Positions 9,908-52,600 of a stretch of DNA of 64,000 bases are shown here, piece after piece. The position numbers and the translations under genes were made by a program. The stretch comes from Eledone cirrhosa (Eukaryota), in NCBI GenBank assembly GCA_964016885.1, contig CAXHJY010000568.1:30786-94785 (forward strand), given 5' to 3'. Each line of letters starts with the position of its first letter. The stretch's first letter is position 1. Below the pieces are notes generated by a model. That model worked only from the letters and a program-made list of their open reading frames with translations, was not told the origin of the DNA and searched no databases.

Positions 9908-10780
9908 GGAAAGAAACAATGCAGTTATTAATAAGAAGAGTCGCCAAGAATTAGCTTATGACCCTCATACAATAGAGAGTGAATGAAGGAGTTTCTCTCA
10001 AAATATTTTGAAGCAATCCTAGCCTCATGCATCATGATGGTGAAGCTAAGATGCTGGAATAGTCAAGTACCTTGACTTGGAGCATCACCTGATACTTAAA
10101 TATGGCGACAACAGTGATTTATTGTTGGAATTGTTCTTCTCCCTATCTCTCTTCTCACTCTCTCCTCTCTTTCTCTGTACCTCATCTCTCTCTCTCACTT
10201 TTTCCCCCTCTCTCTCTCTTACTCTCTTTCTCTCTCACTCTCTCTGGGGTGGGGTGGAGATGGGGTGGGAGAATAAGAGCATGGGTGGGAGGAGGTGGCG
10301 TGGCATGGGTTGGGTGGGGTGGTAGAATAAGAGCATGGATGTGTGGGGGTGGAAAGATCAGAGAAAAATGAATAAGCGCGGAGGATAGGACGACAATGAA
10401 GACGATGACGACGACGACGATGACCGCCATTAGAGACGAGAGACTACCCTAACCACAAGGCCACGTGACTTTATTTCTTCAGGTTTAATAAAAACAAAAC
10501 AAAAGAAACTATGTCAGACAAGAATTGGTTTTGAAGGGTATCGATAGAAGGAAGTAACAATTATTAGATAATCGATATTATAGTATTGATTATCTAATAA
10601 TATCATATTATATCTGTAGACAACGTAATACTACGGAGGATACATTACTGACGAATCTAGTGGAGGTGAAGGGTAGGTGTGGGGGACATGTGGGGAGTGC
10701 GGGGGTGGCTGGGGTAGGTGTGGGGTAGGTGTGGGGTTTGTAGAGAGGTGTGGGGGAGGTGTGGGGTAGGGTGCGGGAGG

Positions 10781-25700: not shown

Positions 25701-26190
25701 TGTAGTGTGATGTAGTATAGTATAGTGTGATGTGGTATAGTGTAGTGTGGTATAGTGTAGTATGGTATAGTGTCGTGTGATGTGATATAGTGCGGTGTGG
25801 TATAGTGTAGTGTGATGTGATATAGTGTGGTGTGGTGTAGTGTGGTGTGGTGTGGTGTAGTGTGGTATAGTGTAGTGTGATGTGGTATAGTGTAATGTGG
25901 TATAGTGTGTTATAGTGTGGTGTGGTGTAATGTGGTTTAGTGTAGTGTGGTGTGGTGTGATGTCGTATAGTGTGGTGTAGTGTAGTGTAGTGTAGTGTGG
26001 TGTGGTGTAGTGTGGTATAGTGTAGTGTGTTGTGATGTCGTATAGTGTAGTGTGTTGTGATGTAGTGTGGTGTGGTGTGATGTCGTATAGTGTGGTGTAG
26101 TATAGTGAAGTGTGTTGTGATGTAGTGTAGTGTAGTGTGGTGTAGTGTGGTATAGTGTAGTGTGTTGTGATGTAGTGTGGTGTGATGTGA
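10781..26190. repeat. 15.4-kb pentanucleotide satellite (TGTAG/TGTGG/TATAG/TGTGA) with kb-scale higher-order duplications
   Basis: Strict 5-bp register. Rare variant pentamers recur at 1915-bp, 1930-bp and 2875-bp offsets. Confidence 0.97.
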
Positions 26191-29245: not shown

Positions 29246-32185
29246 TTAGGTGTAGTGTTGGCGAATCTCGGGAAGCATGGAGGTTTTAAAGGGTGCAGTG
29301 TCTCGACAGCTAACAACTGATGCAGGTAATTTGTTCCATGGAGGTTTTAAAGGATGCAGTGTCTCGACAGCTAACAACTGATGCAGGTAGTTTGTTCCAT
29401 GGAGGTTTTAAAGGATACAGTGTCTCGACAGCTAACAACTGATGCAGGTAGTTTGTTCCATGGAGGTTTTAAAGGATACAGTGTCTCGACAGCTAACAAC
29501 TGATGCAGGTAGTTTGTTCCATGCTTCAGCAACTCTGAGCGTGAAAAAATGTTTCCGAAAGTCATGGGAACTGTGCTGTTTTATGACTTTGTGGGCATAC
29601 CCACGTGTGTTAGACACATGGAAATCAAAAAGGTGTTCAGGGTTGTTGTTGGCAAGATGGTTAATAATTTTGTGGGTGTTTACCAAGTCAGTTGCCAAAC
29701 GTCGGAGCTTCAATGTATCCATGCCCAGGGAAGCAAAGCGTTCAGAATATGGTAGATGCCTGATGGAGGTTATTCGCTTGGTTGCACGTCTCTGAACAGT
29801 TTCCAGCTGGTCAATGTTCTGAGAAACATAGGGGTTAGAGACTGGTGATGCAAATTCTAAGCGTGGCTGCACCATAGCTATGTACAGCTTTAAATAGATA
29901 GCTGGAGAGCGGCTGACAAAGATCTTGCTGAGTGATGCTAAGACACCCTCGGCCTTCTTGACAATTTTAGAGACGTGCTTCGTCCAACGCAAATCGCTGC
30001 TGACAGTAATGCCCAGGTCACGTTCACAAGAAGACTTCTTGATATTAGTGTTGTGGAGGGAGTATGTGGACGCTGGGTTTTTACTCCCAAAATGCATGGT
30101 GGTGCATTTGTCCACAACTAGCTTGAGTTGCCAGTCAGTGATCCATTGTTGCATTGTGTCCAGGTCAGATTGCAGGCAAGATCTATAGTGTTCAGGATCT
30201 GTTCTTTTTATCTCAAGGTATAGCTTGATGTCATCTGCATATTTCAGTACTGTGGCATTCTTTAAGTTGGCATCTATGTCATTAATATATTCCACAAACA
30301 AAAGGAGGCCAAGAATAGATCCCTGTGGTACACCAGATGACATCTCATATGGTGAGGAATGCTGTCCTAGAACCGTGACTACCTCTCTTCGACTGAGAAT
30401 GAAGGACTTCAACCATTTAAAAAGAACGTCCTTCACACCCATTGCAGAGAGTTTTGCATAAGCCTTATGTGTGACACAGAATTGAAAGCTTTAGCAAAGT
30501 CAAGGTAAACAACATCTACCCATGAGCCGCCATCAGTGGTGATGTCTTCAAGAAACTCGATAAGCTGATCACAGCAGCTGGAGTTATGGATAAATCCAAA
30601 TTGCGAGGGCCGGATAAGACTGTGAGAGTTCCAGAAGTTCCAAAGTGTTTCTCTGACACAGGATTCCATCAGTTTGACAATGCAGCTAGTAAGACTAACT
30701 GGACGGTAGTTCACAGGTGATGTGCGGTCACCCTTTTTAAACAGAGGAATGACACTGGCAGTTTTCCACTGCTCCGGAGTAGCACCGTTGTTCAGACAGA
30801 ATTGGAAGAAGCGTGATAGCTGGTTTAGAAGCAAGTACCCACCACGTTTGAGAAGCAGGTATGTAACACCACCAAGATCAGGAGAGGCATAGTTGCGCTT
30901 ATTCTTAAGGTGTCGTCGCAGCATTGCAGGTGTAAATTCCATAGTTGTAACAGAATGCGGTGTCATAGGTGGTGGAGACGGTACACTCTGGTCTTCAATA
31001 GTGAAAATGCCTGCATATCATTCAGCAATGAGCTCTGCGCACTCCTTGGGGTCGTCTGTAATCTGGCTTGTGTGGGGATTGCGAAGAGGACCAACTGGAG
31101 AGTGAGGCCTCTGCTTTGAGTGAACATACTTCCAGAACACCTTACTGTCAGGGCTGGTTGCTATGCGCTGCTCAAATTGAAGCACTACCTTTTTTGTCAC
31201 CTGTTTGAGATGGTTGGATGATTTATTTCGTTTCTTCCTATTGATATCTGATTTATGCAGTTTGTACTCACGTTCAGCATTACGGCGTTCTTTTCTGGCA
31301 AGACGGACTGCTGAAGTCTCCCAAATTGCACTTTTGGTATGTTTTTTCTGCTTACGTGGCACCGATGCTGCACATACTGTACATATTGAGCTCAGGATGT
31401 TCTGGAGTACAGTGTTGACATCTCCAGAGTCGTAGAACTCAAGTCAGTTTGGACGTTGCAACTCGGTGCAGTAACAGTTCCAGTGTGCTTTATTACAGTC
31501 AAAGTGAGCAATTTGGAGATGGTTGTGGTTTTTGTTACTGCCTATGAGGGATAGATTGGCAATGATCATAGCAAGATCAGTCACTTAAAGGTTCCTCAAC
31601 AGTAACACTAATAACCGTTTCAGGAGTAGTGGTGAAGAGTTGGTCCAAAGTGTTGTCACCTCTTGTTGGGGAAGTGACTACTTGGGACCAATTCGAGTGC
31701 AGCACTAGCTCATGGAAGTCATTTGCATTTGGCGGCCAACGAAAGGTCTCCCAGTCAATCTCAGGGTGATTGAAGTCTCCTGCAATAAAAACATAAGTGG
31801 CTGTTTTCCTGGGAGTAGCTCTGAGGATATCACAAAGTTGAGTGTGCCGATGGTAATTTGGGGGACGGTAAACGACTCCAAGTAGCAGTGTTGACATGGT
31901 CATACGTATATCGCAGAAAAATACTTCCTGCTGCGATTGGTTCAAATCAGCAAAAGGAATTGCCGACAGATTTGACCGAACGTAGACCATTACACCACCA
32001 CCACCACCACGATTAATGCGGTCTTTACGAAACAGGTTGTAGCCAGTTATGCTGAAAACCCCATCACAGAATAAGGAATGTGCCCAAGTTTCCGTGACTG
32101 TAATTAAGTCAGGGTTGATACTTTTGACGTAGGAGTCAAAAAGATGAATCTTATTGCATAGACTACGTGCATTCAAGGACAACAA
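29246..32185 (-). pseudogene. Disrupted LINE ORF2 (AP endonuclease + reverse transcriptase)
   Basis: APE: LNARSL, ITVTETW, YRPP, AGDFNHPEIDW, TRGDNTLD. RT: NYRPVSLT, QFGF, YLDFAKAFNSV, SGVPQGSILG, YADD, ERDLGI, QRRATK. Broken near 31577, 31018, 30440 and by the 61-bp repeat. Original end probably FKTSMLPEIRQHYT*. Confidence 0.9.
29276..29519. repeat. 61-bp tandem repeat x4 within the LINE ORF2 C-terminus
   Basis: CATGG starts at 29276, 29337, 29398 and 29459. Confidence 0.95.
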
Positions 32186-32764
32186 TTTGTACCTTGATTC
32201 CAGGTTATTTGTTTGTTTGTGTGTGTGTGTTTGTGTGTATGTGTGTGCGTGTGTGTGTGTATGCAGTGGCGAACTGGGTCTAAAATATTCATTGCCAGGA
32301 GATAAAGGGACCCACCCACTTATAGAATGCTATCGTTTATTTTTTATAATGAATAAATAACATTTTCAAAAAATACATAAGTGAAAACAAAAAAATGCAA
32401 TCAAATTTCTGCAGAAATTAATGTATATATTTTTTTACTAATTATAGTGTATATATACAATACATATTACAGGCAGTATACAGTAATACCAAATGTAAAT
32501 ACAGACTATTATAAAAGAATTTAAAAATAATTGTGAATGTATAGTATACTGTATAGTATACTGTTTTACCTGCTCCAATAAAAAGTATAGACATCCAAGG
32601 AGTTTCAATAACGACCTTTGATCTTTCACACTCACTCAGTATATATAACTGGGAGTGTGTGTATGTTTACATGTACATGTGTATATATAGATTTATATAT
32701 ATGTATTTCAACTATACAGAAAAGAAGGGCTGATAGTACAACCCCCCCCCCCTCCTGCTTAACT

Positions 32765-33185: not shown

Positions 33186-33299
33186 ATTTATGTGTTTATT
33201 TACTTGTCACTCGCTGGTTGTTTGTTCTATCTGTTCTCTCTGTGTGTGTCTGATTTTTTTGTGTGTATGTCTGTATGTCTTCATTTTGTCCATAATTAC

Positions 33300-33668
33300 T
33301 AGTTGTGATGTTGCTATTCCACTCATGTTTTCTGTTTAATTTTGGTTGGAGTTCGCTCATGTTTGTTGCCTCTGTGATTTGTCTGAGCATTGCATTTTTT
33401 CTGTGTATGGATATAATTTTTATCTCTATGTTCTCTAATGTGCTCCTATGTTCTATTGTGGCATGTTGGTGGAGTACTGATGAGTTTTTCCCCTCTTGGA
33501 GTTCTCGCCAGTGTTCACTTATCCTTTCACCTATGCTATGGGATGTTTCACCTATGTATGTTGTGTTCTTATTCCTACACTGTCCCTCAGTACATCTTAT
33601 GTTATATACTACGTTCCTAGTTTTGCAGTTAGTTTGTGGCATTAATGTGCAGACTATGCATTTCCTAT
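33300..33668 (-). pseudogene. Penelope-like element GIY-YIG endonuclease fragment
   Basis: CIVC...NCKTRNVVYNIRC...YIGETSHSIGERISEH...VLHQH...RQITEA...PKLN. Confidence 0.88.
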
Positions 33669-33689
33669 CAGGGGGATCTTTGGAATGGG

Positions 33690-33800
33690 TATGTCCCACA
33701 AGACAACCCATTTGTCCCACAAAACAACGAAGATGTCCCACAAGACCACCAAGATGTCCTACAAGACGACACAGCTGTCCCATGAGACAACCCATATGAT
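33690..33800. repeat. Degenerate 21-bp tandem repeat (GATGTCCCACAAGACAACC..)
   Basis: About 5 units; gives the repeated CPTR peptide. Confidence 0.75.
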
Positions 33801-34104
33801 GACTTACCAAATATTACCTATACTCAACTTTAATCTAAATTAAACACTTTAGAAATAGATTTACAGTGAAAATTAAAGGTAAATGAATTATTTCTGTTTG
33901 TTACTTATTCTTTAAGTAATATTTCACAGGTAAAAGTCGGACTATTTTATTTACCTTTTCTACTAATTTACTGTACAGTAAACCTATGTTAAACGATTAG
34001 TAGTTTGTTGTAAAAAGTCCAGTAAACCCGAACTTGATTTATGTCTATGTAAGTTGTATTCGTATCAGGAATACGGTACAGTATATATATTATTTTGTTA
34101 TGCT

Positions 34105-35190: not shown

Positions 35191-36702
35191 TCTGGTTTTA
35201 TAATTTCACAAATTTTTTCCAATAGAGAGAGAGTCGGTTTCTAACATAGACACAAGACTCTCATTGGAATTTACACAACATAAACTAGGTAGATATGTAT
35301 GCATGTGTGCATGTATGTGTGTGCAGGTATGGATGTTATTGTATGTGTGGATGTGTATGTTTTGAGTTGTATGTGTGCATGTGTATATGCTTTGTATCTG
35401 TACATGTGTATATGCAGTTATTAGATGCAACATTTTTGGAATGTTTTACATATTTTTACTGTTCCATTAATGGATTGTATTTGTAATTTCCTAACTAGTT
35501 GTGTTCTTTCTGTGAAGCCTTGCTTCTCAAGATTTGTATTGAGGCAGTTACTAACATACCCCAGTGCCCCAATAATCACAGGTATAAATCTGAAAGTATA
35601 GTCAGGGTGGAGTATCTGCAGATTTCTCATTAGTTCTGCATAGATATTCTCCTTTCGCTAATCTTTGATATTATATTGGCATCTGCTGGACAGCTAACTT
35701 CCACTACTGTGCATGCCTTATTTTCCCTGTCCCATATCATTATATTTAGTCTGTTATGCCTGCATTTTATTGGGGTTTTTACTGGAACATTCCCCCAGTA
35801 TTCTTTCATATTATGTATACGGATGTCTTGCTGTAGCTTTTAATGTGTTTATTATTGGGGCTATCTTTTATACGGATTGCAATGTACAGTATTTTGGCCA
35901 CTACATCTTTTGTGAATCAGGTATTTCGTGTTAATTTCCTGTTCTTGGATTGAAAAAGCGTATCCTTCAAAGTGGGAGCCAATATAGCAACCGCTATATT
36001 GGCTCCCACTTTGGTCCAAGATAGACTACTTTTCTTATCTATATTACTTTCACTCTTGAGCTTCCTGGCAACATATCCATGCATGATTTTTTGCTGATAA
36101 GCATGCAGTTTTTCATCCATGGATTCACGGCGATACTGCTGAGCGACTTCCTTGGGTGTGAGTTTTTGATTATCACACAGGGAATATCTCTCGAGGAGTT
36201 CCTTCCCAACTCTCACGATCTTATCTGTTTCATGCAGATAGACTTGCTCGAGAGACGGGCTCCTACGCTTCGAGGTTCGTAGATGTTGTCGGAGGGATAT
36301 GATGCGACATTCAAATGCTGTCTGGACTGATGTTAGGCCTCTGCCTCCCTGCTTACGTTTTAAGTAAAGTCACTGTTGATGTGGAAGTATTTTTCGAGTT
36401 CTAACATCAACTGCTCGGATTTCATCTATCGTCCAATTGAGTATTCCAAACGTTGGTGTTAGGACAGGCACAGCAAACACACTGTGAGCCACTGTTTTGT
36501 TTTGCGCAGAGAGTTCCGATAACCAAATCTTTCTTAATTGGGTGTAATATTCCCTGGTTACGTGTTCCTTATTACAGATACCATTATAGGATATGTTCTC
36601 ATCTATCCCCAGGTATCTGTGGCAGTCCTCATCAGATATCGGTGAAACAGTTAGACCATTGATGAAAATGTTGCTAGATTGGGTTGTTGTTTTCCCCCAC
36701 TT
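35191..36702 (-). mobile_element. R4/Dong-type RLE non-LTR retrotransposon, 5'-truncated copy 1
   Basis: Minus-strand translation gives RYLGIDE...LRKIWLSELSAQNKTVAHSVFAVPVLT..FGILNWT...LYLKRKQGGRGL, then a decayed RLE domain ending PVIIGALG...CCI*, and a 3' UTR shared with copy 2. Confidence 0.85.
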
Positions 36703-36703
36703 T

Positions 36704-36794
36704 TATGTATGTATGTATGTATGTATGTATGTATGTATGTATGTATGTATGTATGTATGTATGTATGTATGTATGTATGTATGTATGTATGTAT
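36704..36794. repeat. (TATG)n microsatellite, about 22 units
   Basis: Read directly. Confidence 0.95.
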
Positions 36795-37363
36795 CATGGT
36801 CGGGTCGTTGGCGACTAAACTGGCAACCCCACCAAGGTTTCTTGGTGAGGAGGGTGACTTTGGAAATCCTGCAGGACTAAAAACAAAACTTGTCAAAGGG
36901 CAAAGGAGCTCTTAAGAGTCAATGGCCGTCCAAAATCACTGGGAGAATGACCCCTTAGCCTTTGTCAAGGCAGAATTCTAGGAGAAGGAAAACTCTGATA
37001 TAACACCTGCAACCCTGATGGTATCCAATGATGTTGACTTGTTCTTCTTTTTGGTAAATATCATCTTGGTTAAGAGAGTGGGACTGGCTTTGTGCAGTGC
37101 CTTTGCTCAATATAAAAGCTTCACGGCACAGGCATTGCTTTATATCTGGAGATCTCTCTGCACTTGTCATCACATGGTACCATGGGTCCAGCACTATGTG
37201 TCAATAATTGTCACAAGTGTAGTGTTTGTACCAGAGTTTTCAAGACGCTGGCTGGAGTAAAAAGTCACACTCGTTCAGCGCATCGGTAGGGGTTCTCCTA
37301 CATGGATATAAAGTAGTGGCCGTACTCGAAAACGAGTTGGCAGCCACCATGTATGTATGTATG
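36795..37363 (+). mobile_element. Internally deleted (bipartite) RTE-derived non-autonomous element with (ATGT)n tail
   Basis: 5' part has the RTE-like UTR motif TCTAGGAGAAGGAAAACTCTGAT. 3' part encodes CSVCTRVFKTLAGVKSHTRSAHR* (C2H2 finger), then a CTCGAAAACGAG hairpin and an ATGT tail. Confidence 0.6.
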
Positions 37364-38180
37364 TTCTTCTGGTTTTATAATTTCACAAATTTTTTGCCAA
37401 TAGAGAGAGAGTCGGTGTCTAACATAGATACAAGACTCTCTCATTGGAATTTACACAACATCAACTAGGTAGATTATGTATGCATGCATGTGTAGATATG
37501 GATGTTATTGTATGTGTGGATGTGTATGTTTTGAGTTGTATGTGTGCATGTGTATATGCTTTGTATCTGTACATGTGTATATGCAATTATTAGATGCAAC
37601 ATTTTTGGAATGTTTTACATATTTTTACTGTTCCATTAATGGATTGTACTTGTAATTTCCTAACTAGTTGTGTTCTTTCTGTTCCTGTGAAGCCTAGCTT
37701 GTCAAGATTTGTATTGAGGCAGTTACTAACATACCCCAGTGCTCCAATAATCACAGGCATAAATCTGAAGGTGTAATCAGGGTGGAGTATCTGCAGATTT
37801 CTCATCAGTTCTGCATAGATATTCTTCTTTTCGCTAATCTTTGAGATTATATTGGCATCTGCTGGGCAGCTAATTTCCACTACTGTGCATGCTTTCTTCT
37901 CCCTGTCCCATATCATAATATCTGGCCTGTTATGCCTGCATTTTACTATGGTTTTTACTGGAACATTCCACCAGTACTCTTTCATATTATGTACGTGGAT
38001 GTCTTCCACATTGCTGTAGCTTTTAATGTGTTTATTATCGGGCTATCTTTTTTACGGACTGCATTGTACAGTGTTTTGGCCAATACATCATGCCTCATAG
38101 GTAGATAGTACCGCGATGACATCTTTGGACAGCTGCTGATGACATGGGTGATATCCTCGATGTTAGTTCTGCAGAGTATT
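37364..38180 (-). mobile_element. R4/Dong-type RLE non-LTR retrotransposon, 5'-truncated copy 2
   Basis: CCHC remnant C..NIEDITHVISSC..RHD. RLE core HNRPDIMIWD...VVEISCP...EKKNIY...PVIIGALG. Confidence 0.9.
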
Positions 38181-38970: not shown

Positions 38971-39203
38971 GGTTCTTATATATTTGATATATATTTTCCT
39001 TATCGAGCCCTCTTTGGATTATAGTCTTCAATTTTATTATTATTACTATACACACATATATATATATACATTAGAAAGTGAGTTTTTTTTACAAAATGAA
39101 AAATAACTGAGGTGTCCTACACGAGTGAAAGTATAAAGAAAAAAAGATGAAATCGAAAATGCAACTGGTATCTTATTTTTAAAAAAATATATATATTTAT
39201 TTG

Positions 39204-39247
39204 GTTCCTTTAACGGTTTCGCAGTTCTTCTGCTTTTCAAAAGTAGA
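39204..39247 (-). ncRNA. Minimal hammerhead motif, U3:A8 core variant (3' pLTR copy)
   Basis: CTT-TTGAAAA-GCAG AAGAA CTGC-GAAA-CCGT-TA-AAG. Confidence 0.6.
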
Positions 39248-40272
39248 GTTGAGATGGAGGGTCTGTGGTTTTTCTCACATCTGGTTGGTCTCTGAATGTT
39301 ACTTGTTTTATATGGAAAAAGTGGCTCGAAATGCCAGGTTTTTCGAGAAGTAATTTGATTGGTTGGTCAATAATTATAATAAATTTCGCGCCAGTTCGCG
39401 TTACAAAGTTCTTCAAACAAGGGGGGGGGGGTTGTCACAGGTTGTTTTTTCATATATGAGTGTTTGAATTTCTTTTTACTTAAAAAAAGGGGGCTCAAGA
39501 AGGCTTTTTTTTAATAAACGTAATTTGATTGGTTATAAATGAAATTATGGCTGTCACGTGAACAAGTTTTCATTAAATTTTCGCGCCCTTATTTGGAAAT
39601 CCATTCTGTAGCCTTTTTAGAGAATTTTATGATAAGTAAAAGATAATGGTCAAGAGAAATGGGATGGGAGAATTGTTCTGGTTCAGTGAATATGGTTAGT
39701 TCGCTGGGGTGTCAGAATTCAGATTTTCTATTGAATAAAGAAAGTAAAGATATGTATTTTTATTTGTGTGCTTGTGTGTGTATTGGAAGATGATTCTATT
39801 AGTAGAAATGGGGGAGGGAGTTGTGTGTATGGGTGTTATGTGTGTGTGTGTGGGAGTATGTTAAGATGGAGAGAATATATATTTTGTGTGTGTGTATATA
39901 TGTGTGTAGGAAAGTGATTCTATTAGTAGAAATGGGGGAGGGAGTTGTGTGTGTGGGTGTTGGGGTTGTTATATGTGTGTATGGGTGTTATGTGTGTGGG
40001 AGTATCGTTAGCATGTTAAGATGAAGAGAATATATATATATATATTGTGTGTGTGTATGTGTGTGTGTAGGAAAATGATTCCTTTAGTAGGAATATTTTT
40101 GAATGAACATATTTTCCTTTCTTATTCGTATTTGTTCTGTTGTATTGTCAGTGCAAACGTATGTTAAGGTTTATTTAGTTCGGGTTTTTATTTTCTAAAG
40201 TAGAAGTTGTTATGTGTGTGTGTATGTGTCTGTTTGGGTGGTTAGCATGTTATGGTGTTGACATAATGTATA

Positions 40273-42550
40273 TTAAACCATATTTAATGTTGGTCTATAT
40301 TTTTGAATAAACATATTTTCCTTATTTATTCGTATTTGTTCTGTTGTATTGTTAGCGCAAAGGTAAAATGGGAAGACTTGGAATTTGGGTGTCTTATTAC
40401 TTGCGCATATGTCTAGATGTGCGCTTAGTGGTATCTGTATCTGTCTCGTGGTTGGACCTCGTAATTGTTGGCGATGAACTGTCATTCTGTTTCTGAGTGT
40501 GAGTTTAGTTTGTCCTATATAATCTTCATTGCATCCTTTACATTTAATGGCATAAAGTAGATTTTTTGATGAGCAAGTGAAGTGATTTTTTACAGTAAAA
40601 TTTTGTCCTGATTTAAATGTATACGTGTTGCCTTCAATAAGGTGAGTGCAGGTTCCACAATTAGAGCGACCACATTTTTTGACACTTGGTTGTGGGTTTG
40701 TGGTAGGTAATTTGGCATTGGTGAGTAATGTTTTTAGTGATTTCGGTTGTCTTTTGCTTTTGATTATTTTGTGTGTTCAAGGGCTTTTTTTATTCTTGGG
40801 TTTTGTTTTAGTAGTGGGATGTTCTTGTGAATAGTGTTGTAAGCTTCCGCATTTCTTGGGTTGTGTGTTGAGATATATGATAGAATATTGGATGTATCTT
40901 GAATTTGTTTCTGTTTTCGTAATTCATCAATGCCTATTGCTTTAGCCCTTTCTATTCCATTATTTATTAGTAATAGTGGGTACTCTCTTTCGAGTAGAAT
41001 TTCCTTTAATTCTTGAAGTCTTTTATTTCGCGTTTCATAATTGGAGACAATTGTGCAAATTCTTCTTGCTAGGTTAAAAGAAATGTTCGTCTTCGTGTGC
41101 TTTGGATGGTTCGAGGTGAATAGCAGGTATTGTTTGGAATCTGTTGGTTTGTAGTGTATGTCAGTTTCAATATTTGTGTCTTTTTTAAAGATTAAGATGT
41201 CCAGAAATGGGAGTTGATCTTGGCTGTATTCCATTGTGAATTGGATGTAGTTATTGATGCCGTTTATTAAGTTTTTGAAATCCTTCAGTTGGTCGAGTGT
41301 GTGGAACCAAAGAATGAGAAAATCATCCAAGTAGCGTTTGCAATTCTCTGATAAATATTTGTGGAAGTTCAATCCGTATTTTGATTTGGACTGTTCATAT
41401 ATCTGGACTTCTAAGTATGTCATGACTAAGTTGGCATAAGTTGGAGCGGCTTTTGTACCCATCGCAGTCCCCGATATTTGCTTGTAAGTACTGCCATCGA
41501 AATAAAAAAAGTTGTTCTGTAAGATGAATTTTAATTCCTCGGTGATGAAGCTTTTTTCTATTCTGTCAGGTATCTCATTGGGATATTTCTCTAGCCAGAA
41601 TCCTATTGCTTCTAGTCCGTATTGGTGTGGGATCGTTGTGTAGAGATTCACTACATCGAAAGACACGATAATAGTGTCGATGTTGACATGTTTGGGGAGG
41701 TGGTTTAAGAGGTCCAGATCGTCTCTTACAAGGCTTGGTATGTGTTTGAGAATTGGTTTTAGTAGTATGTCTATAAAGTTGCTCAGTCTGTGTGTTTCAC
41801 ATTGTGGGCCCGCCACAATTGGTCTTAATTTAAGGTCTGTGGGGGTATTGTGTGTTCACGCAGGCTGAGGTGGATTGTTTACAGGCATCGTTAATTATTT
41901 TACACTTGTGGATCTTCGGAAGTCCGTAAAGGTTGCTGGTTTTGTATTCAAAATTTGTTAAATAATCGCGTTCCTTTTTAGTTAGGTCTTCCTGGTATCG
42001 ATAAATCAGTGTGTTTAATCTGGTCATTGTTTTTGATTGCTGGTAGTTTGTTTACTCTTTCATAGTAATTAGTATTTTGTAAGAGAGAGAACATAGAATT
42101 TTTATATTTTTCAGCCTCCATAATGACAACAGTACTTCCCTTGTCCGCTTCCTTAATTATAATGTCCGTATTGTTTTTTAGTTCATGGATAATCTCCCAT
42201 TCTCTTCGACTCGTGTTGGGTTTGGGTTTAGGTTGCGGTAGTTCATGGTATGGGAATGTAGCTATGTGGTCACAAAATTTGCCCAGAACTCTGTTTCTAC
42301 CTTTTGTTGGGTTGTAGCTGCTTTTATTCCGTACAATTGATTCGTCGTTATTCTCCTTGTCAAAGAATTCCTCTGTGAGACGTAATTTTCTACAGAAGTG
42401 TGAGATATCGTCATTTATCTCGTCGGGGTTAGAGTATTGTGGTGTTGGTGTGAATTTCAGTCCTTTGGAGAGAATTTTTACTTGTTGGGCTGAGAGGTTT
42501 GTATTTGAAAGGTTGATTATTTTCGGTTTTTCAAAATCGGTTTGTGCCAC
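40273..42550 (-). pseudogene. Frameshifted PLE polyprotein (RT + GIY-YIG endonuclease)
   Basis: LSKGLKFTPTP, IKEADKGSTVV, YGLPKIHK, SFDVVNLYT, GTAMGTKAAPTYANL, RYLDD, LPFLDI, HYKPTDS. Then CGRSNCGTC linker, LLYAIKCKGCNEDYIGQT...RMTVHR. Frameshifts near 42020, 41840 and 40770. Confidence 0.93.
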
Positions 42551-42643
42551 TGGGTGTCGTGGGTCCTGTAGCCTTGGTCTAAAAAATGATTTTTCTGGAA
42601 TGTTTTTTCAATGGTATTATTATATCTAATGGTATTTCCCCTG

Positions 42644-42687
42644 TTGTTTTTTGAAAAGCAGAAGAACTGCGAAACCGGTAAAGAAAC
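42644..42687 (+). ncRNA. Minimal hammerhead motif, U3:A8 core variant (inverted pLTR copy)
   Basis: TTTT-TTGAAAA-GCAG AAGAA CTGC-GAAA-C CG G-TA-AAGA. Palindromic stem III ACCGGT, GUA cleavage triplet, AATAAA just downstream. Confidence 0.68.
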
Positions 42688-42819
42688 CAAATAAATATAT
42701 ATATTTTTTAAAAAATAAGACTCTAGTTGCATTTTCGATTTCATATTTTTTTCTTTATATATATACACACACATATATATATACATATATATATTTATAC
42801 ATATATACATATATATATA

Positions 42820-43083
42820 TATCTTTCATCGTATTTTTGACTAAAGGAATTTTAGCCTGATAATGGGGTTTAGAACCCTCAGATAAATAGAAAAAGATGA
42901 GTATTGACGTACATGGGAGTCGAACCCACATCTTTGGTTATCGCGACCACTGTGCTACCACTACACCAACACATCACCCATCTCTTTCCATTCAAATTAG
43001 AAACTACATTCTTAGCGTTTTAAACTCGTTTTAAACCCATTATCAGGCTAAAATTCCTTTAGTAAAAAATACGGCGAAAGATA
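42820..43083. mobile_element. ~265-bp inverted-repeat element (TIR ~56 bp) enclosing a tRNA-like sequence
   Basis: TATCTTTCATCGTATTTTTGACTAAAGGAATTTTAGCCTGATAATGGG / CCCATTATCAGGCTAAAATTCCTTTAGTAAAAAATACGGCGAAAGATA. TA at both ends. Confidence 0.85.
42905..42975 (-). pseudogene. tRNA-like cloverleaf (pseudo-tRNA, non-canonical anticodon loop)
   Basis: Acceptor GATGTGT/GTACGTC, D arm GTGT-AGTGGTA-GCAC, anticodon arm GTGGT-CGCGATA-ACCAA, T arm GTGGG-TTCGACT-CCCAT. TTTTT about 10 nt downstream. Confidence 0.75.
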
Positions 43084-43131
43084 GATATTGTCTAATTTCA
43101 AACCTGCTCACTGTTTCAAAACATACTTACT

Positions 43132-43170
<39 letters not shown>

Positions 43171-43254
43171 AAAGGTAAACAGAAATAACAACACAATCGG
43201 TACAGTATATGGAAGGGATATATTAGGTTAACGCTTGATATAGCAGGAAGAGGG

Positions 43255-43292
43255 TCTTAACGTGGTTCGAACGCTAATCCATCATCAGAAGA
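43255..43292 (-). ncRNA. Degenerate minimal hammerhead (canonical CUGAUGA core) in a solo pLTR-like fragment between (TA)n tracts
   Basis: TCTT-CTGATGA-T-GGA TTAGCG TTC-GAAC-CACG-TT-AAGA. Confidence 0.5.
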
Positions 43293-43387
43293 GATAGTGA
43301 GAAATAAGATAGATTGAGGGTACGGGCGGGTTGGAATTGGAAAAAATGTCTTTAGATAGAAATATCACGTCCATTCATGTTGACATC

Positions 43388-43475
<88 letters not shown>

Positions 43476-43483
<8 letters not shown>

Positions 43484-43584
43484 ATGGCTTCAACAGGAAT
43501 AAAACTGTTTCATTCGAAGGAAATAGTCAGGAATGATTTCCTTCGAATGAAACAGTTCTAGTCCTGTACAAGCCATTTCTATAT
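43476..43584. other. ~110-bp palindrome/hairpin with 22-bp perfect core
   Basis: AACTGTTTCATTCGAAGGAAAT (43503-43524) pairs with 43536-43557. Outer pairs ACAGGA/TCCTGT and AATGGCTT/AAGCCATT. Confidence 0.9.
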
Positions 43585-43740
43585 TATGTATTGATTACCT
43601 TAATTACAGTGGTTACTCTCGATTGAACCGGGATACCCCCCCCCCCACACATGCCACCCCCCCCCACACATGCACCCCCCCACACACATACACATATATA
43701 TACATACATAAACACACACACATATACATACACACATGTA

Positions 43741-44026
43741 TATCTCTCTCCATATAACATTCTTTGCCTCTCTGTCTGTCTGTTCCTATGCATTCTCAAA
43801 CGGCTTGACCAAATCAAATTTTACAAGGTAATAGTGTTAGACCCCGGGAGTGTCAAAATCTAATTTTTATTTTATTTTAGATTAAAACAATATAACATTT
43901 CATCTTCACTTTTTATTAGGACTTCTGCATCAATTGGTGAACATACGACGAAACTGTTTCAGAAAGGAGGGATAAACATGCCAATCTATGTTTAGAATCC
44001 CGAACAACGCCGGGCCATTCTGCTAG
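43741..44026 (+). mobile_element. Non-autonomous Helitron-like element
   Basis: 5' region with (TCTG)n and AAACGGCTTGACCAAATC..ATTTTAC motif. 3' CCCGAACAACGCCGGG hairpin and CTAG|T. Confidence 0.65.
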
Positions 44027-44542
44027 TTTTATCTAAAATAATCTTTCTATAGTCAACTATAGTAAAATACATTTTATTTTCATTTGGATTAAAACAATAG
44101 TAAACAACACAACGATTACGACGTCACATTTTGTATATGAATATGTATGTGTCTGTGAGTGTGTATGTACATTATGTACATTATTAAATACACACACATT
44201 TACACATACATATGTGACGATTGACAAAAAAATGAGGTGAAAAGCTATGCGTGTGTCTGCTTGAATGTATGTCTGTGTGTGTCTGTCTTAGTATATGTAT
44301 GTGAGAGAGTATGTGTGTGAGTGTGCAGCAACAATTTATTCTTTGGGCACCAATAAAAAATTACTCAATGAATATTGTTTACCCTAAGGTGCTTCAAGAT
44401 TGACAGATTTTCATTTCTAAATTCTATTATCATTACAATTTTGATATTTTAAAAATAAAATATAGATATTTTGAAATAATTATGAGAAAAAAAACATATC
44501 TTCATATTTATTGTTTACTAATCTGAATAATAACAGCAGTAA

Positions 44543-44570
44543 CCCGGGAAACGCCGGCTAGTTCAGCTAG
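44543..44570 (+). mobile_element. Helitron-type 3' terminus
   Basis: CCCGGGAAACGCCGG...CTAG|T. Confidence 0.55.
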
Positions 44571-44984
44571 TATATATATATAAGTCCAGACAAATTAAGA
44601 AAACAACTGTACGTTTAGCAAAGTGAAGTTTAAGTTCAATGCGAGTTGATAATCAGTTGTTGTGAAGGGTGTAGAGCAGCTGGAGCTGATCCAATATTAC
44701 AGTCCAGTCACTGCATTATCTCTCTCTCTCTCTATCTCTCCCTCTCTCTTTCTCTCTCTCCCCCTCTCTCTCCTCCTCTCTCCCTCTCTCTCTCACTCTC
44801 TCTCCTTCTCTCTCTTTCTATATATAATTTGTATAGGTGCTCCTACATAGCGGGATACACATATAAATGTACGTATTGTATATTGGATAATATACGGGAT
44901 GTTTATGAAAAGCATTTGAAGGCCTTTCACTACTAAGTTTTAAGGTTGTGACCATCGTCACACTCCTAGCTTCAACAAAAGCAG

Positions 44985-45100
44985 GAAAAGAAATGGAAAA
45001 TGCAACTGGAGTCTTTTAAGAATATTTATTTATTTACTTTACCGGTTTCACAGTTCTTATGATTTTCAAAAGTAAAATTGAGATGGAGGTTTGTGTTGCT
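44985..45100 (-). mobile_element. Solo pLTR fragment of the same PLE family, with the third U3:A8 hammerhead copy (45033-45076)
   Basis: Homologous to 39145-39270. TTTACTT-TTGAAAA-tcataagaactgt-GAAACCGGTA-AAGTAAA has a perfect 7-bp stem I. Confidence 0.75.
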
Positions 45101-45741
45101 GTTGTGGTTTGTCGACGGCGGTGGGGATCGGGTGGGGTTGTTTGGAAAATTTGTAATTTTTCAAGGTTGTCTTCGTTTACTTTTGAAAAACCAAAATGAG
45201 TAATTTAGTTTACATATTGAGACCCCGACCCATCCTATTTATTTTATAACTTATGAGATTTCTAGTAATGTACTTTTTTGTCATGTATAATGTTTTTTAA
45301 TGTATAAAGAAAATTAATTGTCACAGGAATGCAACCAAATAAAAATAGAATTTCACCGGAGATAGATTAGCAAAATTTAAGGTGAGGGGTGGTGGAATAA
45401 GGGCGGTGGTGTGTGTGGAAAAAAATCTAAAAAATTGATAAGGGAGGGACGATTATTCGAGATCCAAGAGTAACCAAGTGCCTACATATATACAGAACCT
45501 TCCTAGCATACCATTTCTCGATGCCGCGGTTCTACTGGCAAATAAAAACTCACAAGAACAGCAGAACTGGAAGTATGTTTGATCATCTCCAGGACTAGAT
45601 TCCCTTACAGAAAATAGAATATAACGTGAAAAGAGGTAGAAGGCTAAACAATGCAAAATGGACTGTAAGATGAGGTAAGGAAAAAGTAAGTTAGCTGGTA
45701 ATCTTTGTTTTGTTTTTTTGGTGTTGCTGTTCTCTCTTCTG

Positions 45742-46506: not shown

Positions 46507-46660
46507 GGGCGGCGAATTGGCAGAGCAGTTAGAACATCGGATAAAATGTTTTATAGTATTTGTTCCAGCTCTCTGCTCTCTGAATTGAAATCTCGTCGGG
46601 GTCAACTTTGTCTTTCATCCATTCAATGTCAATAAAAATGGACCAGTCCAATACTGGAGA
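46507..46660 (+). mobile_element. tRNA-derived SINE fragment
   Basis: GGCGGCGAATTGGCAGA head and GGTCAACTTTGTCTTTCATCC body; reverse-complement homolog of 34530 and 45958. Confidence 0.65.
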
Positions 46661-46666
46661 CGATTC

Positions 46667-49600
46667 TTCCTCTCTATCTCTTTCCCACTTCTATTCCCTC
46701 ACTCTCTCTATCTCTTTCCCAGTTCTATTCCCTCACTCTCTCTATCTCTTTCCCACTTCCATTCCCTCTCACTCTCTCTATCTCTTTCCCACTTCCATTC
46801 CCTCTCACTCTCTCTATCTCTTTCCCACTACTATTCCCTCACTCTCTCTATCTCTTTCCCACTTCTATTCCCTCTCACTCTCTCTATCTCTTTCCCACTT
46901 CTATTCCCTCTCACTCTCTCTATCTCTTTCCCACTTCTATTCCATCTCACTCTCTCTATCTCTTTCCCACTTCTATTCTCTCACTCTCTCTATCTCTTTC
47001 CCACTTCTATTCTCTCACTCTCTCTATCTCTTTCCCACTTCTATTCTCTCACTCTCTCTATCTCTTTCCCACTTCTATTCTCTCACTCTCTCTATCTCTT
47101 TCCCACTTCTATTCTCTCACTCTCTCTATCTCTTTCCCACTTCCATTCCCTCACTCTCTCTATCTCTTTCCCACTTCTATTCCCTCTCACTCTCTCTATC
47201 TCTTTCCCACTTCTATTCCCTCTCACTCTCTCTATCTCTTTCCCACTTCCATTCCCTCTCATTCTCTCTATCTCTTTCCCACTTCTATTCTCTCACTCTC
47301 TCTATCTCTTTCCCACTTCCATTCCCTCTCACTCTCTCTATCTCTTTCCCACTTCCATTCCCTCACTCTCTCTATCTCTTTCCCACTTCCATTCCCTCTC
47401 ACTCTCTCTATCTCTTTCCCACTTCTATTCTCTCACTCTCTCTATCTCTTTCCCACTTCCATTCCCTCTCACTCTCTCTATCTCTTTCCCACTTCTATTC
47501 CCTCACTCTCTCTATCTCTTTCCCACTTCTATTCTCTCATTCTCTCTATCTCTTTCCCACTTCTATTCTCTCACTCTCTCTATCTCTTTCCCACTTCTAT
47601 TCCCTCTCACTCTCTCTATCTCTTTCCCACTTCTATTCTCTCACTCTCTCTATCTCTTTCCCACTTCTATTCTCTCACTCTCTCTATCTCTTTCCCACTT
47701 CCATTCCCTCTCACTCTCTCTATCTCTTTCCCACTTCTATTCCCTCACTCTCTCTATCTCTTTCCCACTTCTATTCCCTCACTCTCTCTCTATCTCTTTC
47801 CCACTTCCATTCCCTCTCATTCTCTCTATCTCTTTCCCACTTCTATTCTCTCACTCTCTCTATCTCTTTCCCACTTCCATTCCCTCTCATTCTCTCTATC
47901 TCTTTCCCACTTCTATTCTCTCACTCTCTCTATCTCTTTCCCACTTCTATTCTCTCACTCTCTCTATCTCTTTCCCACTTCTATTCCCTCACTCTCTCTC
48001 TATCTCTTTCCCACTTCCATTCCCTCTCATTCTCTCTATCTCTTTCCCACTTCTATTCTCTCACTCTCTATATCTCTTTCCCACTTCTATTCTCTCACTC
48101 TCTCTATCTCTTTCCCACTTCTATTCCCTCACTCTCTCTCTATCTCTTTCCCACTTCCATTCCCTCTCATTCTCTCTATCTCTTTCCCACTTCTATTTTC
48201 TCACTCTCTCTATCTCTTTCCCACTTCCATTCCCTCACTCTCTCTATCTCTTTCCCACTTCCATTCCCTCTCACTCTCTCTATCTCTTTCCCACTTCTAT
48301 TACCTCTCACTCTCTCTATCTCTTTCCCACTTCTATTCTCTCACTCTCTCTATCTCTTTCCCACTTCTATTCTCTCACTCTCTCTATCTCTTTCCCACTT
48401 CTATTCCCTCACTCTCTCTCTATCTCTTTCCCACTTCCATTCCCTCTCACTCTCTCTATCTCTTTCCCACTACTATTCCCTCTCACTCTCTCTATCTCTT
48501 TCCCACTTCCATTCCCTCTCACTCTCTCTATCTCTTTCCCACTACTATTCCCTCTCACTCTCTCTATCTCTTTCCCACTTCTATTCTCTCACTCTCTCTA
48601 TCTCTTTCCCACTTCTATTCCCTCACTCGCTCTCTATCTCTTTCCCACTTCCATTCCCTCTCACTCTCTCTATCTCTTTCCCACTACTATTCCCTCTCAC
48701 TCTCTCTATCTCTTTCCCACTTCCATTCCCTCTCACTCTCTCTATCTCTTTCCCACTTCTATTACCTCTCACTCTCTCTATCTCTTTCCCACTTCTATTC
48801 TCTCACTCTCTCTATCTCTTTCCCACTTCTATTCCCTCACTCTCTCTCTATCTCTTTCCCACTTCTATTCTCTCACTCTCTCTATCTCTTTCCCACTTCT
48901 ATTCTCTCACTCTCTCTATCTCTTTCCCACTTCTATTCTCTCACTCTCTCTATCTCTTTCCCACTTCTATTCTCTCACTCTCTCTATCTCTTTCCCACTT
49001 CTATTCCCTCACTCTCTCTCTATCTCTTTCCCACTTCCATTCCCTCTCACTCTCTCTATCTCTTTCCCACTACTATTCCCTCTCACTCTCTCTATCTCTT
49101 TCCCACTTCCATTCCCTCTCACTCTCTCTATCTCTTTCCCACTTCTATTCTCTCACTCTCTCTATCTCTTTCCCACTTCCATTCCCTCTCACTCTCTCTA
49201 TCTCTTTCCCACTACTATTCCCTCTCACTCTCTCTATCTCTTTCCCACTTCCATTCCCTCACTCGCTCTCTATCTCTTTCCCACTTACATTCCCTCACTC
49301 TCTCTATCTCTTTTCCACTTCTATTCCCTCTCACTCTCTCTATCTCTTTCCCACTACTATTCCCTCTCACTCTCTCTATCTCTTTCCCACTTCTATTACC
49401 TCTCACTCTCTCTATCTCTTTCCCACTTCTATTCTCTCACTCTCCCTATCTCTTTCCCACTTCTATTCCCTCACTCTCTCTATCTCTTTCCCACTTCTAT
49501 TCCCTCTCACTCTCTCTATCTCTTTCCCACTTCTATTCCCTCTCACTCTCTTTATCTCTTTCCCACTTCCATTCCCTCTCATTCTCTCTATCTCTTTCCC

Positions 49601-52600
49601 ACTTCTATTCTCTCACTCTCTCTATCTCTTTCCCACTTCTATTCTCTCACTCTCTCTATCTCTTTCCCACTTCTATTCCCTCACTCTCTCTCTATCTCTT
49701 TCCCACTTCCATTCCCTCTCATTCTCTCTATCTCTTTCCCACTTCTATTCTCTCACTCTCTCTATCTCTTTCCCACTTCTATTCCCTCACTCTCTCTCTA
49801 TCTCTTTCCCACTTCCATTCCCTCTCATTCTCTCTATCTCTTTCCCACTTCTATTCTCTCACTCTCTCTATCTCTTTCCCACTTCTATTCCCTCACTCTC
49901 TCTCTATCTCTTTCCCACTTCCATTCCCTCTCATTCTCTCTATCTCTTTCCCACTTCTATTCTCTCACTCTCTCTATCTCTTTCCCACTTCTATTCCCTC
50001 ACTCTCTCTCTATCTCTTTCCCACTTCCATTCCCTCTCATTCTCTCTATCTCTTTCCCACTTCTATTCTCTCACTCTCTCTATCTCTTTCCCACTTCTAT
50101 TCCCTCACTCTCTCTCTATCTCTTTCCCACTTCCATTCCCTCTCATTCTCTCTATCTCTTTCCCACTTCTATTCTCTCACTCTCTCTATCTCTTTCCCAC
50201 TTCTATTCCCTCACTCTCTCTCTATCTCTTTCCCACTTCCATTCCCTCTCATTCTCTCTATCTCTTTCCCACTTCTATTCCCTCTCACTCTCTCTATCTC
50301 TTTCCCACTTCTATTCCCTCACTCTCTCTCTATCTCTTTCCCACTTCCATTCCCTCTCACTCTCTCTATCTCTTTCCCACTTCTATTCTCTCACTCTCTC
50401 TATCTCTTTCCCACTTCTATTCCCTCACTCTCTCTCTATCTCTTTCCCACTTCCATTCCCTCTCACTCTCTCTATCTCTTTCCCACTACTATTCCCTCTC
50501 ACTCTCTCTATCTCTTTCCCACTTCCATTCCCTCTCACTCTCTCTATCTCTTTCCCACTACTATTCCCTCTCACTCTCTCTATCTCTTTCCCACTTCTAT
50601 TCTCTCACTCTCTCTATCTCTTTCCCACTTCTATTCCCTCACTCGCTCTCTATCTCTTTCCCACTTCCATTCCCTCTCACTCTCTCTATCTCTTTCCCAC
50701 TACTATTCCCTCTCACTCTCTCTATCTCTTTCCCACTTCCATTCCCTCTCACTCTCTCTATCTCTTTCCCACTTCTATTACCTCTCACTCTCTCTATCTC
50801 TTTCCCACTTCTATTCTCTCACTCTCTCTATCTCTTTCCCACTTCTATTCCCTCACTCTCTCTCTATCTCTTTCCCACTTCTATTCTCTCACTCTCTCTA
50901 TCTCTTTCCCACTACTATTCCCTCTCACTCTCTCTATCTCTTTCCCACTTCATTCCCTCTCATTCTCTCTATCTCTTTCCACTTCTATTCCTCTCACTCT
51001 CTCTATCTCTTTCCCACTTCTATTCCTCTCACTCTCTCTATCTCTTTCCCACTTCTATTCTCTCACTCTCTCTATCTCTTTCCCACTTCTATTCTCTCAC
51101 TCTCTCCTATCTCTTTCCCACTTCTATTCCCTCTCATCTCTCTATCTCTTCCCACTTCTATTCCCTCTCACTCTCTCTATCTCTTTCCCACTTCTATTCC
51201 CTCTCACTCTCTCTATCTCTTTCCACTTCCATTCCCTCTCATTCTCTCTATCTCTTTCCCACTTCTATTCTCTCACTCTCTCTATCTCTTTCCCACTTCT
51301 ATTCTCTCACTCTCTCTATCTCTTTCCCACTTCCTATTCCCTCTCTCTCTCTCTATCTCCTTCCCACTTCATTCTCTCTTCTCTCTATCTCTTTCCCACT
51401 TCTATTCTCTCACTCTCTCTATCTCTTTCCCACTTCTATTCCTCTCACTCTCTCTCTATCTCTTTCCCACTTCCATTCCCTCTCATTCTCTCTATCTCTT
51501 TCCACTTCTATTCTCTCACTCTCTCTATCTCTTTCCCACTTCTATTCCTCACTCTCTCTCTATCTCTTTCCCACTTCCATTCCTCTCACTCTCTCTATCT
51601 CTTTCCCACTTCTATTCTCTCACTCTCTCTATCTCTTTCCCACTCTATTCCCTCTCTCTCTCTCTATCTCTTTCCACTTCCATTCCTTCTCATTCTCTCT
51701 ATCTCTTTCCCACTTCTATTCTCTCACTCTCTCTATCTCTTTCCCACTTCTATTCCCTCACTCTCTCTCTATCTCTTTCCCACTTCCATTCCCTCTCATT
51801 CTCTCTATCTCTTTCCCACTTCTATTCCTCTCACTCTCTCTATCTCTTTCCCACTTCTATTCCCTCACTCTCTTCTATCTCTTTCCACTTCCATTCCCTC
51901 TCATTCTCTCTATCTCTTTCCCACTTCTATTCGCTCACTCTCTCTATTCTTTCCCAATTCTATTCTCTCACTCTCTCTCTATCTCTTTCCCACTTCCATT
52001 CCTCTCATTCTCTCTATCTCTTTCCCACTTCTATTCTCTCACTCTCTCTATCTCTTTCCTCTCTTCCTATTCCCTCACTCTCTCTCTATCTCTTTCCCAC
52101 TTCCATTCCCTCTCATTCTCTCTATCTCTTTCCCACTTCTATTCTCTCACTCTCTCTATCTCTTCCCACTTCTATTCTCTCACTCTCTCTATCTCTTTCC
52201 CACTTCTATTCTCTCACTCTCTCTATCTCTTTCCCACTTCTATTCTCTCACTCTCTCTATCTCTTTCCCACTTCTATTCCCTCACTCTCTCTATCTCTTT
52301 CCCACTTCTATTCCCTCTCACTCTCTCTATCTCTTTCCCACTTCTATTCCTCTCACTCTCTCTATCTCTTTCCACTTCCATTCCCTCTCATTCTCTCTAT
52401 CTCTTTCCCACTTCTATTCTCTCACTCTCTCTATCTCTTTCCCACTTCTATTCTCTCACTCTCTCTATCTCTTTCCCACTTCTATTCCCTCACTCTCTCT
52501 CTATCTCTCACTTCCTTCCCACTTTCCATTCCCTCTCATTCTCTCTATCTCTTTCCCACTTCTATTCTCTCACTCTCTCTATCTCTTTCCCACTTCTATT

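Follow-up and report, generated by a model that had tools for sequence, protein, structure and literature searches.

A hammerhead-like motif with a U3:A8 core pair in the pseudo-long terminal repeats of Penelope-like elements of Eledone cirrhosa

Does a hammerhead-like motif that carries U3:A8 in place of the C3:G8 pair of its core still represent a ribozyme, and, if so, one that cuts? This question is raised by a 64,000-nt stretch of the genome of Eledone cirrhosa (GenBank assembly GCA_964016885.1, contig CAXHJY010000568.1, positions 30,786 to 94,785 of the forward strand; hereinafter the window, whose own numbering is used throughout), where three copies of such a 44-nt motif lie at 39204-39247 (minus strand; copy A), 42644-42687 (plus strand; copy B), and 45033-45076 (minus strand; copy C), in pseudo-long terminal repeats (pLTRs) of Penelope-like elements (PLEs). 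The answer that we favor, and hold to be reasonably probable, is that these are damaged small type I hammerheads of PLE pLTRs, that the U3:A8 swap likely occurred once in the ancestor of four element families, and that only one subfamily, A2, is predicted to fold into a cutting shape, likely as a weak cutter and perhaps with the help of a protein. The stretches that hold the motifs are:

39204-39247, minus strand: hammerhead copy A, in a 3′ pLTR; core at 39240-39234 (U3 at 39240, A8 at 39235), stem II at 39233-39221, H17 at 39211
42649-42759, plus strand: inverted pLTR piece with a short tail, holding copy B; core at 42651-42657, stem II at 42658-42670, GUA ending at 42680
44985-45113, minus strand: stand-alone short piece of a subfamily C pLTR, with copy C; family match of ~130 nt, 93–98% identical to its best relatives

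Each copy consists of TTGAAAA, a 13-nt segment, and GAAAC, with an AATAAA 3′ of the motif, exactly where the original prediction, made from the letters of the window, had placed them; its proposed cut after 42680 likewise falls at the end of the GUA of copy B. All three have the core N3 U4 G5 A6 N7 N8 A9 / G12 A13 A14 / A15.1-U16.1 / H17 with a Watson-Crick 3:8 pair. A stem II that adjoins the core and leaves G12 free is seen in copies A and B (4 bp, starting with G10.1:C11.1) and is predicted to be missing from copy C. As had been anticipated, no copy is intact. Copy A has a 3-bp stem I, a broken palindrome (ACCGTT), and the triplet UUA, and so lacks both the ACCGGT palindrome and the GUA that had been ascribed to the motif. 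Copy B retains just two bases of the 5′ strand of its own stem I: the inverted arm begins two bases ahead of the core, and the letters 5′ of the motif are antisense open reading frame (ORF), with the ORF-sense match to a full-length relative (locus L366) ending at 42648. Copy C has a 7-bp stem I, a U in place of G10.1, and a stem II that is predicted to be shifted, pairing G12 and A13 (P(G12 paired) 0.97). In dimer folds, which like all folding results below are predictions only, intermolecular pairing through ACCGGU has P >0.7 for copy C, ~0.5 for copy B, and is absent from copy A, while P(stem I) is 0.01 for copy A and 0.00 for copy B; in a read-through transcript from upstream, the antisense of copy B would bind copy A in a 111-bp duplex (−139 kcal/mol). 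Since copy A is without the palindrome and would be trapped in this duplex, copy B is without stem I, and copy C would bury G12, the window copies likely do not cleave, and we regard cutting by any of them as very improbable. Nor are they three separate witnesses: the arms 39132-39242 and 42649-42759 are 94% complementary, and copies A and B belong to a single insertion, one in each arm. The fragment with copy C, ~77% identical to family A, is a separate one. The claim of three diverged copies is not borne out.

The insertion to which copies A and B belong comprises the following features:

39047-42759, minus strand: Neptune-type PLE insertion of family A, subfamily A1; 5′-truncated and frameshifted; its 5′ end carries the inverted pLTR piece, and the surrounding DNA is (TA)n-rich
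41978-42607, minus strand: N-terminal ORF piece, 209 amino acids from stop to stop, 5′-truncated; no Pfam match; aligns to P0001 and L366
40764-41855, minus strand: reverse transcriptase (RT) ORF piece, 363 amino acids; RVT_1 at E 4.5e-6 and 27 bits (below the 29.6 cut-off)
40273-40776, minus strand: ORF piece with a C-x4-C-x2-C linker and a GIY-YIG endonuclease, 167 amino acids; GIY-YIG at 30.7 bits (above the 22.6 cut-off)
39047-39203, minus strand: long pLTR tail 3′ of the would-be cut site

This insertion and the full-length copy L366 match at 94.7% identity across 2,884 nt; the ORF is split over three frames in the window and is an open frame of 938 amino acids in L366, where it lies between two direct 1.07-kb pLTRs (97.8% identical) with one motif in each, namely two A2 motifs ~5 kb apart. 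The RT piece has 327 homologues, of which the named ones come mainly from bivalve or mollusc-associated assemblies at ~50% identity. The combination of an RT with a C-terminal GIY-YIG domain, direct or inverted pLTRs, 5′ truncation, and a tail is that of the endonuclease-bearing PLEs. Both the linker of the CX2-5CxxC type and (TA)n targeting are given for Neptune PLEs (PMC8557442); copies of the present family terminate in (TA)n, and we assign the element provisionally to the Neptune type by these two features, noting that the linker is common to Nematis.

We searched the 3.0-Gb genome with patterns built on one scaffold, in which most core letters are fixed, using the reversed pattern as control. 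Exact matches (control in brackets) number 19,280 (3) for U3:A8, 77 (3) for U3:G8, 127 (5) for C3:A8, and 9 (0) for C3:G8; hence the U3:A8 motifs lie far beyond chance. The nine C3:G8 matches comprise two pLTRs of B/C type, one junction artefact, four members of the older families F and H, one tandem repeat, and one match without a family; the single-change counts lead one to expect ~0.5 double changes. C3:G8 was rejected as a living state of family A. U3:A8 occurs in 98 of the 100 matches listed for families E-H and in all 100 listed for family D, and among these we found no family with a mismatched 3:8 state. Because the patterns fix most of the core, loci were also sampled by their endonuclease: among 30 GIY-YIG loci not picked by motif, 21 have a motif within 1.5 kb downstream (12 of family E, 6 of family D, and 2 of family A, these 20 all U3:A8, plus 1 with C3:G8) and 9 have none. 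Another 20 loci, chosen for long open frames, added family J (U3:A8, with GUC) and more C3:G8 outgroup copies; the link of motif to ORF is uncertain in L251 (opposite strand, ~4 kb off) and in L197, L210, and L216 (motif upstream). The core letters with a Watson-Crick 3:8 pair recur in families A, C, E, F, and J, while the sister family D departs from them: of the first 100 listed among its 11,268 matches, 97 read GCAA (A13C), 2 GAAA, and 1 GGAA. U3:A8 is thus a fixed, family-wide state. The prediction of a fixed double change is thereby upheld (19,280 against 9 matches), although the selection deduced from it could not have been read off three copies of which two stem from one event. It was also right that standard CUGANGA searches would miss the family; the same is true of Rfam, whose scan of window positions 26000-47000 gave 77 matches at E ≤10 with no hammerhead family among them. 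More than 30,000 hammerhead-like motifs of one genome (19,280 + 11,268, nearly disjoint sets) thus escape both CUGANGA descriptors and Rfam.

The RT tree unites families A, D, and E in one clade with a support of 100/98 (34 of 36 rows, two being dropped for short coverage); with family J added, the four remain one clade with a support of 99 in the Shimodaira–Hasegawa-like approximate likelihood ratio test (SH-aLRT; 23 rows, quick method), and the C3:G8 elements fall outside it. The simplest reading of this topology is that the C3:G8 pair likely gave way to U3:A8 once, in the ancestor of the four families. Between these families there are ~0.7 amino-acid changes per site; 14–16 of 16 core letters are nonetheless common to A2, D, E, and J, while most of their flanks align no better than shuffles, the exceptions being the upstream flanks of A2 and D (z 7.0) and the downstream flanks of A2 and E (z 3.4). 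As a side observation, family D (e.g., L346-L365) has an upstream flank like that of family A and an RT that groups with family E, which hints at recombination. The free position N7 varies between families (A, U, C), and the stems co-vary, with GCAG/CUGC against GCAU/AUGC in stem II and UU/AA, AA/UU, or AU/AU as the first pairs of stem I.

A wider comparison came from 126 PLE loci of other hosts, scanned with a descriptor that allows any letter at positions 3 and 8; single-protein searches of genome contigs and metagenome contigs had recovered no relative, and the same searches repeated from an alignment did. These loci yielded 27 distinct motifs, 26 of them on the coding strand. The 3:8 pair is Watson-Crick in 27/27 (20 C:G, 5 U:A, 1 A:U, and 1 G:C, i.e., 7/27 other than C:G), in motifs that are related sequences and not mutually independent; the U:A cases are scattered over the RT tree. 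One C3:G8 element, L198, carries the same ACCGGU palindrome. Position A17 occurs in 7/20 C:G and 1/5 U:A motifs, too few to link U3 with an avoidance of A17. Two observations from this set stand apart: the motifs with the rarer swaps A3:U8 and G3:C8 are PLE-linked and come from metagenome contigs (L222:1968 and L239:116), and animal-type PLEs, some with hammerhead motifs, occur on genome contigs placed in bacterial metagenome-assembled genome bins (L270-L282), where they are likely host DNA. Because the core is kept, the stems change together, and the external pairs are all Watson-Crick, the motif is almost certainly a true homologue of PLE pLTR hammerheads with a covarying 3:8 pair; this agrees with the compensatory nature that had been proposed for U3:A8 and, along with the PLE anatomy, with the proposed origin of the motif.

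These same data bear on one alternative, namely that the motif is a plain vestige, its C3-to-U and G8-to-A changes the product of A+T-biased drift and its likeness inherited without selection. Both changes do run from G/C to A/U in an A+T-rich genome, damaging changes have been fixed in C and D, and copies decay neutrally; but families as far apart as described above, with flanks that do not align, still have G5, G12, and the CCGG of the palindrome; no family with a mismatched 3:8 state turned up among the matches listed for E-H and D; and all 27 external motifs are Watson-Crick. For the history of the clade this alternative is already largely refuted, and we consider it improbable overall.

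The original prediction had further combined the three copies into a single structure with a 7-bp stem I and a 4-bp stem II. Each of the two halves is real: in family A the 4-bp stem II (G10.1:C11.1) goes with a stem I of 3 bp (A1) or 4 bp (A2), and the 7-bp stem I is that of subfamily C, where a U takes the place of G10.1 and the commonest form has a broken stem II (the stem II of copy C recurs in 14 of the 23 C copies sampled). The stem II of A followed by the 3′ stem I arm of C, however, has one match in 3.0 Gb, in a copy whose 5′ arm also differs, and no subfamily has both stems together. The composite is thus a chimera of two subfamilies, and an efficient ribozyme of that build as the family consensus has next to no chance of being real. 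Of these forms, A2 looks the youngest. By a hand count of the first 100 listed among 11,085 exact family-A matches, 61 are A2 and ~39 A1; flanks with at most one mismatch accompany 34/37 A2 and 24/36 A1 copies in samples that are biased; and of seven family-A loci with long frames six have a motif, with all nine of their motif copies being A2. A2 has no copy in the window, its intact motifs occurring by the thousand elsewhere in the genome.

The several forms differ in their predicted folding. For monomers, the cost of forcing the hammerhead fold is 3.0 kcal/mol in A2, 4.7-7.7 kcal/mol in the window copies, and 12.5 kcal/mol in D, with 1.5 and 3.0 kcal/mol in two C3:G8 controls. As a dimer, A2 has the double hammerhead as its predicted lowest-energy fold, like the C3:G8 controls L189 and L198, with P(stem I) ~0.7. 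The ACCGGU palindrome is predicted to pair between molecules at P 0.73-1.0 in A1, A2, C, D, and E, and subfamily C shifts its stem II so as to pair G12, as in its window copy. Only A2, then, is predicted among the subfamilies to take the dimeric cutting shape, and we lean, by a narrow margin over even chances, toward measurable cleavage by it.

In support of such cleavage, PMC3088659 states that ribozymes with U3:A8 are active in vitro; the same paper also lists A13 in the hammerhead consensus core. Several observations nevertheless weigh against cutting hammerheads in this clade, beside the relatedness of the external motifs already mentioned. In the dimer model, stem I fails to form in A1, D, E, and J (P ≤0.04), and A1, D, and E keep the palindrome duplex while losing that stem. 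Within the predicted A2 dimer, U3 can pair with A17 (P 0.53, against 0.00 in the C3 controls). Changes at A13 cripple hammerheads, and family D has fixed A13C and yet reached its 11,268 matches. Genomic copies of family A have 26 changes in 858 core positions against 34 in 2,428 flank positions, or 13 in 804 once position 16.2 is dropped, at which the sample is enriched for copy A's own variant; the core is thus no better kept than the flanks. This equal decay is what is expected of dead copies and is no test of selection. Conservation of the core relative to flanks holds between families (14–16/16) and not among genomic copies; within a family, copies are too alike for a covariance model or R-scape.

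The ends of the inserted copies speak to the same issue. In 80 scored family-A copies the tail past H17 measures ~140 nt in 42, ~80 nt in 16, and 120-180 nt in 4, the remaining 18 being unclassified. Because inserted copies run 80-140 nt past H17, the insertion template was likely uncut at the downstream motif. AATAAA was considered and rejected as the end signal of the element: copies extend well beyond it, and family D has no AATAAA at that place. The course of events that would fit the favored reading is that, in a tandem transcript, the motifs of its two pLTRs pair with each other by means of ACCGGU; that the upstream pLTR is cut after GUA, slowly and perhaps with the aid of a protein, freeing the element RNA, which would start ~170 nt before the first AUG (the distance in L366); and that reverse transcription would then proceed on RNA uncut at the downstream motif. 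Catalysis along this course is likely weak, to judge by the predicted U3-A17 pair, the burial of G12 in C, A13C in D, and the tails past the cut site. Because sister families have fixed changes expected to cripple cutting, the fixation of U3:A8 is itself no proof of present-day cleavage.

A further alternative is the main rival of the favored reading, although we think it unlikely: the motif would be a true hammerhead descendant that no longer cuts usefully and is kept for a non-catalytic job, e.g., RNA pairing via the palindrome or protein binding. Pairing of the palindrome even where the hammerhead fold fails, the amplification of D with A13C and of C with G12 buried, the U3-A17 trap, and insertion from RNA uncut at the 3′ motif all suit it, as do the Naiad PLEs, which thrive without canonical hammerheads (PMC8557442). 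Against it, the letters that are kept are the catalytic ones (U4, G5, A6, A9, G12, and A14) while N7 varies, and the youngest subfamily has gained a fourth pair in stem I. In its most explicit, and slightly less probable, form the hammerhead would have been repurposed in this PLE clade as a signal for RNA dimerization or protein loading, with U3:A8 and GUA trapping the core through U3-A17; the argument for this is that the ACCGGU palindrome has persisted in sister families in which A13C became fixed or G12 became buried. If true, a single genome would hold, in this clade, a natural series of motifs running from active to catalytically dead, and with it a means of testing what PLE hammerheads are for. 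More generally, the clade supplies matched natural variants: A2 is intact, stem I is weak in A1, G12 is buried in C, D has A13C, E has U10.1-U11.1, and an outgroup in the same genome has C3:G8. With these, the importance of cleavage for transposition could be put to the test.

Other repeats came to light along the way. Further families of this genome carry intact-looking hammerhead motifs, mostly C3:G8 (L046, L094, L153, L156, and L333), and one locus (L069; G000:C910:422-3452) has a 310-bp unit repeated in tandem in two arrays of opposite orientation (4.6 and 4.5 copies, 99% matches); the units contain a C3:G8 hammerhead motif with a palindromic helix III, and the locus looks like a non-LTR retrozyme. 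Within the window, a 45-bp inverted repeat by a (TA)n run at 43480-43580 is a fold-back remnant of another repeat family, other copies of which have a CTGATGA core and a non-palindromic helix III. Adjoining the tail of copy B, 56-bp inverted arms at 42815-43088 surround a tRNA-like sequence (42905-42975, minus strand; Rfam tRNA, 41.2 bits), and the whole is likely a short repeat derived from a tRNA. A second GIY-YIG-like ORF remnant, recognized by eye and belonging to another PLE family, lies at 33196-33813 (minus strand), with no Pfam match and, by the window scan, no hammerhead nearby. Decayed ORF pieces of non-LTR retrotransposons, again by eye, occupy 29432-32329 (minus strand) and 35917-38042 (plus strand), and are of the AP-endonuclease plus RT type and the restriction-like endonuclease type. 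Two very long simple satellites with extreme strand skew span ~10600-26000 and 46600-64000, one of them a short-period G/T-rich array and the other a 34-36-bp pyrimidine-rich array.

The U3:A8 swap itself is already published, both for PLE pLTRs and for hammerheads generally, and changes no model. U3-A8 is recorded in the pLTR hammerheads of the Cercyon PLEs of Schistosoma mansoni, with ~1,300 matches (Cervera and De la Pena, 2014; PMC4209133), and Perreault et al., 2011 (PMC3088659) describe natural U3-A8 covariation and a tolerated U10.1-U11.1. A literature search for U3-A8 hammerheads by that name returned PMC4209133 alone, and searches worded for C3U with G8A or for A13C hammerheads returned none, with Lunse et al., 2017 (PMC5785218) and a supplement of PMC4209133 lying outside the search; three mollusc rows of the PMC4209133 alignment are C3:G8, and the Neptune-type mollusc case of U3:A8 may thus not be in print. 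Among the closest known systems is Cercyon (families Sm3 and Sm4; PMC4209133): it has the same swap, with both UUGAAAA and UUGAUAA in the published alignment, the same place in the pLTR, a short stem I, more than 1,000 mostly solitary copies, and close opposite-strand pairs. The present elements differ from it in being of the Neptune type, in a 6-nt palindromic helix III (none in Cercyon), in the GUA triplet, in a shorter stem II (4-5 bp), and in more than 19,000 copies; by element type, the swap here is likely independent of that in Cercyon.

The type I order and a small palindromic helix III are also those of the PLE hammerheads of Drosophila, rotifers, shrimp, and mosquito (PMC4209133), and recur, together with a predicted double-hammerhead dimer, in the related C3:G8 elements L198, L193, L270, and L189; from C3:G8 PLE motifs the present ones differ in U3:A8, a weaker stem I, and the possible U3-A17 pair. 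That pair would match the G17-C3 trap that has been put forward for minimal hammerheads (PMC3884650). PLE motifs are reported to have low activity as dimers (PMC4209133), the dimer model is reviewed in PMC6765202, and the role of PLE hammerheads is still called unclear (PMC8557442). The covariants of PMC3088659 have the same compensatory pair, and the U-U start of stem II in family E is tolerated there; its section 8 does not describe them as a high-copy PLE clade. Finally, Poseidon PAc of Anolis carolinensis (PMC11167929) also has a pLTR hammerhead, a tail past the cut site, and A+T-rich targets; its hammerhead needs the element's protein in order to cut, and insertion draws mainly on uncut RNA as its template. 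PAc has a C3:G8 pair and an ORF that starts inside stem II, whereas in the E. cirrhosa element, as represented by L366, the first AUG follows the cut site by the ~170 nt given above.

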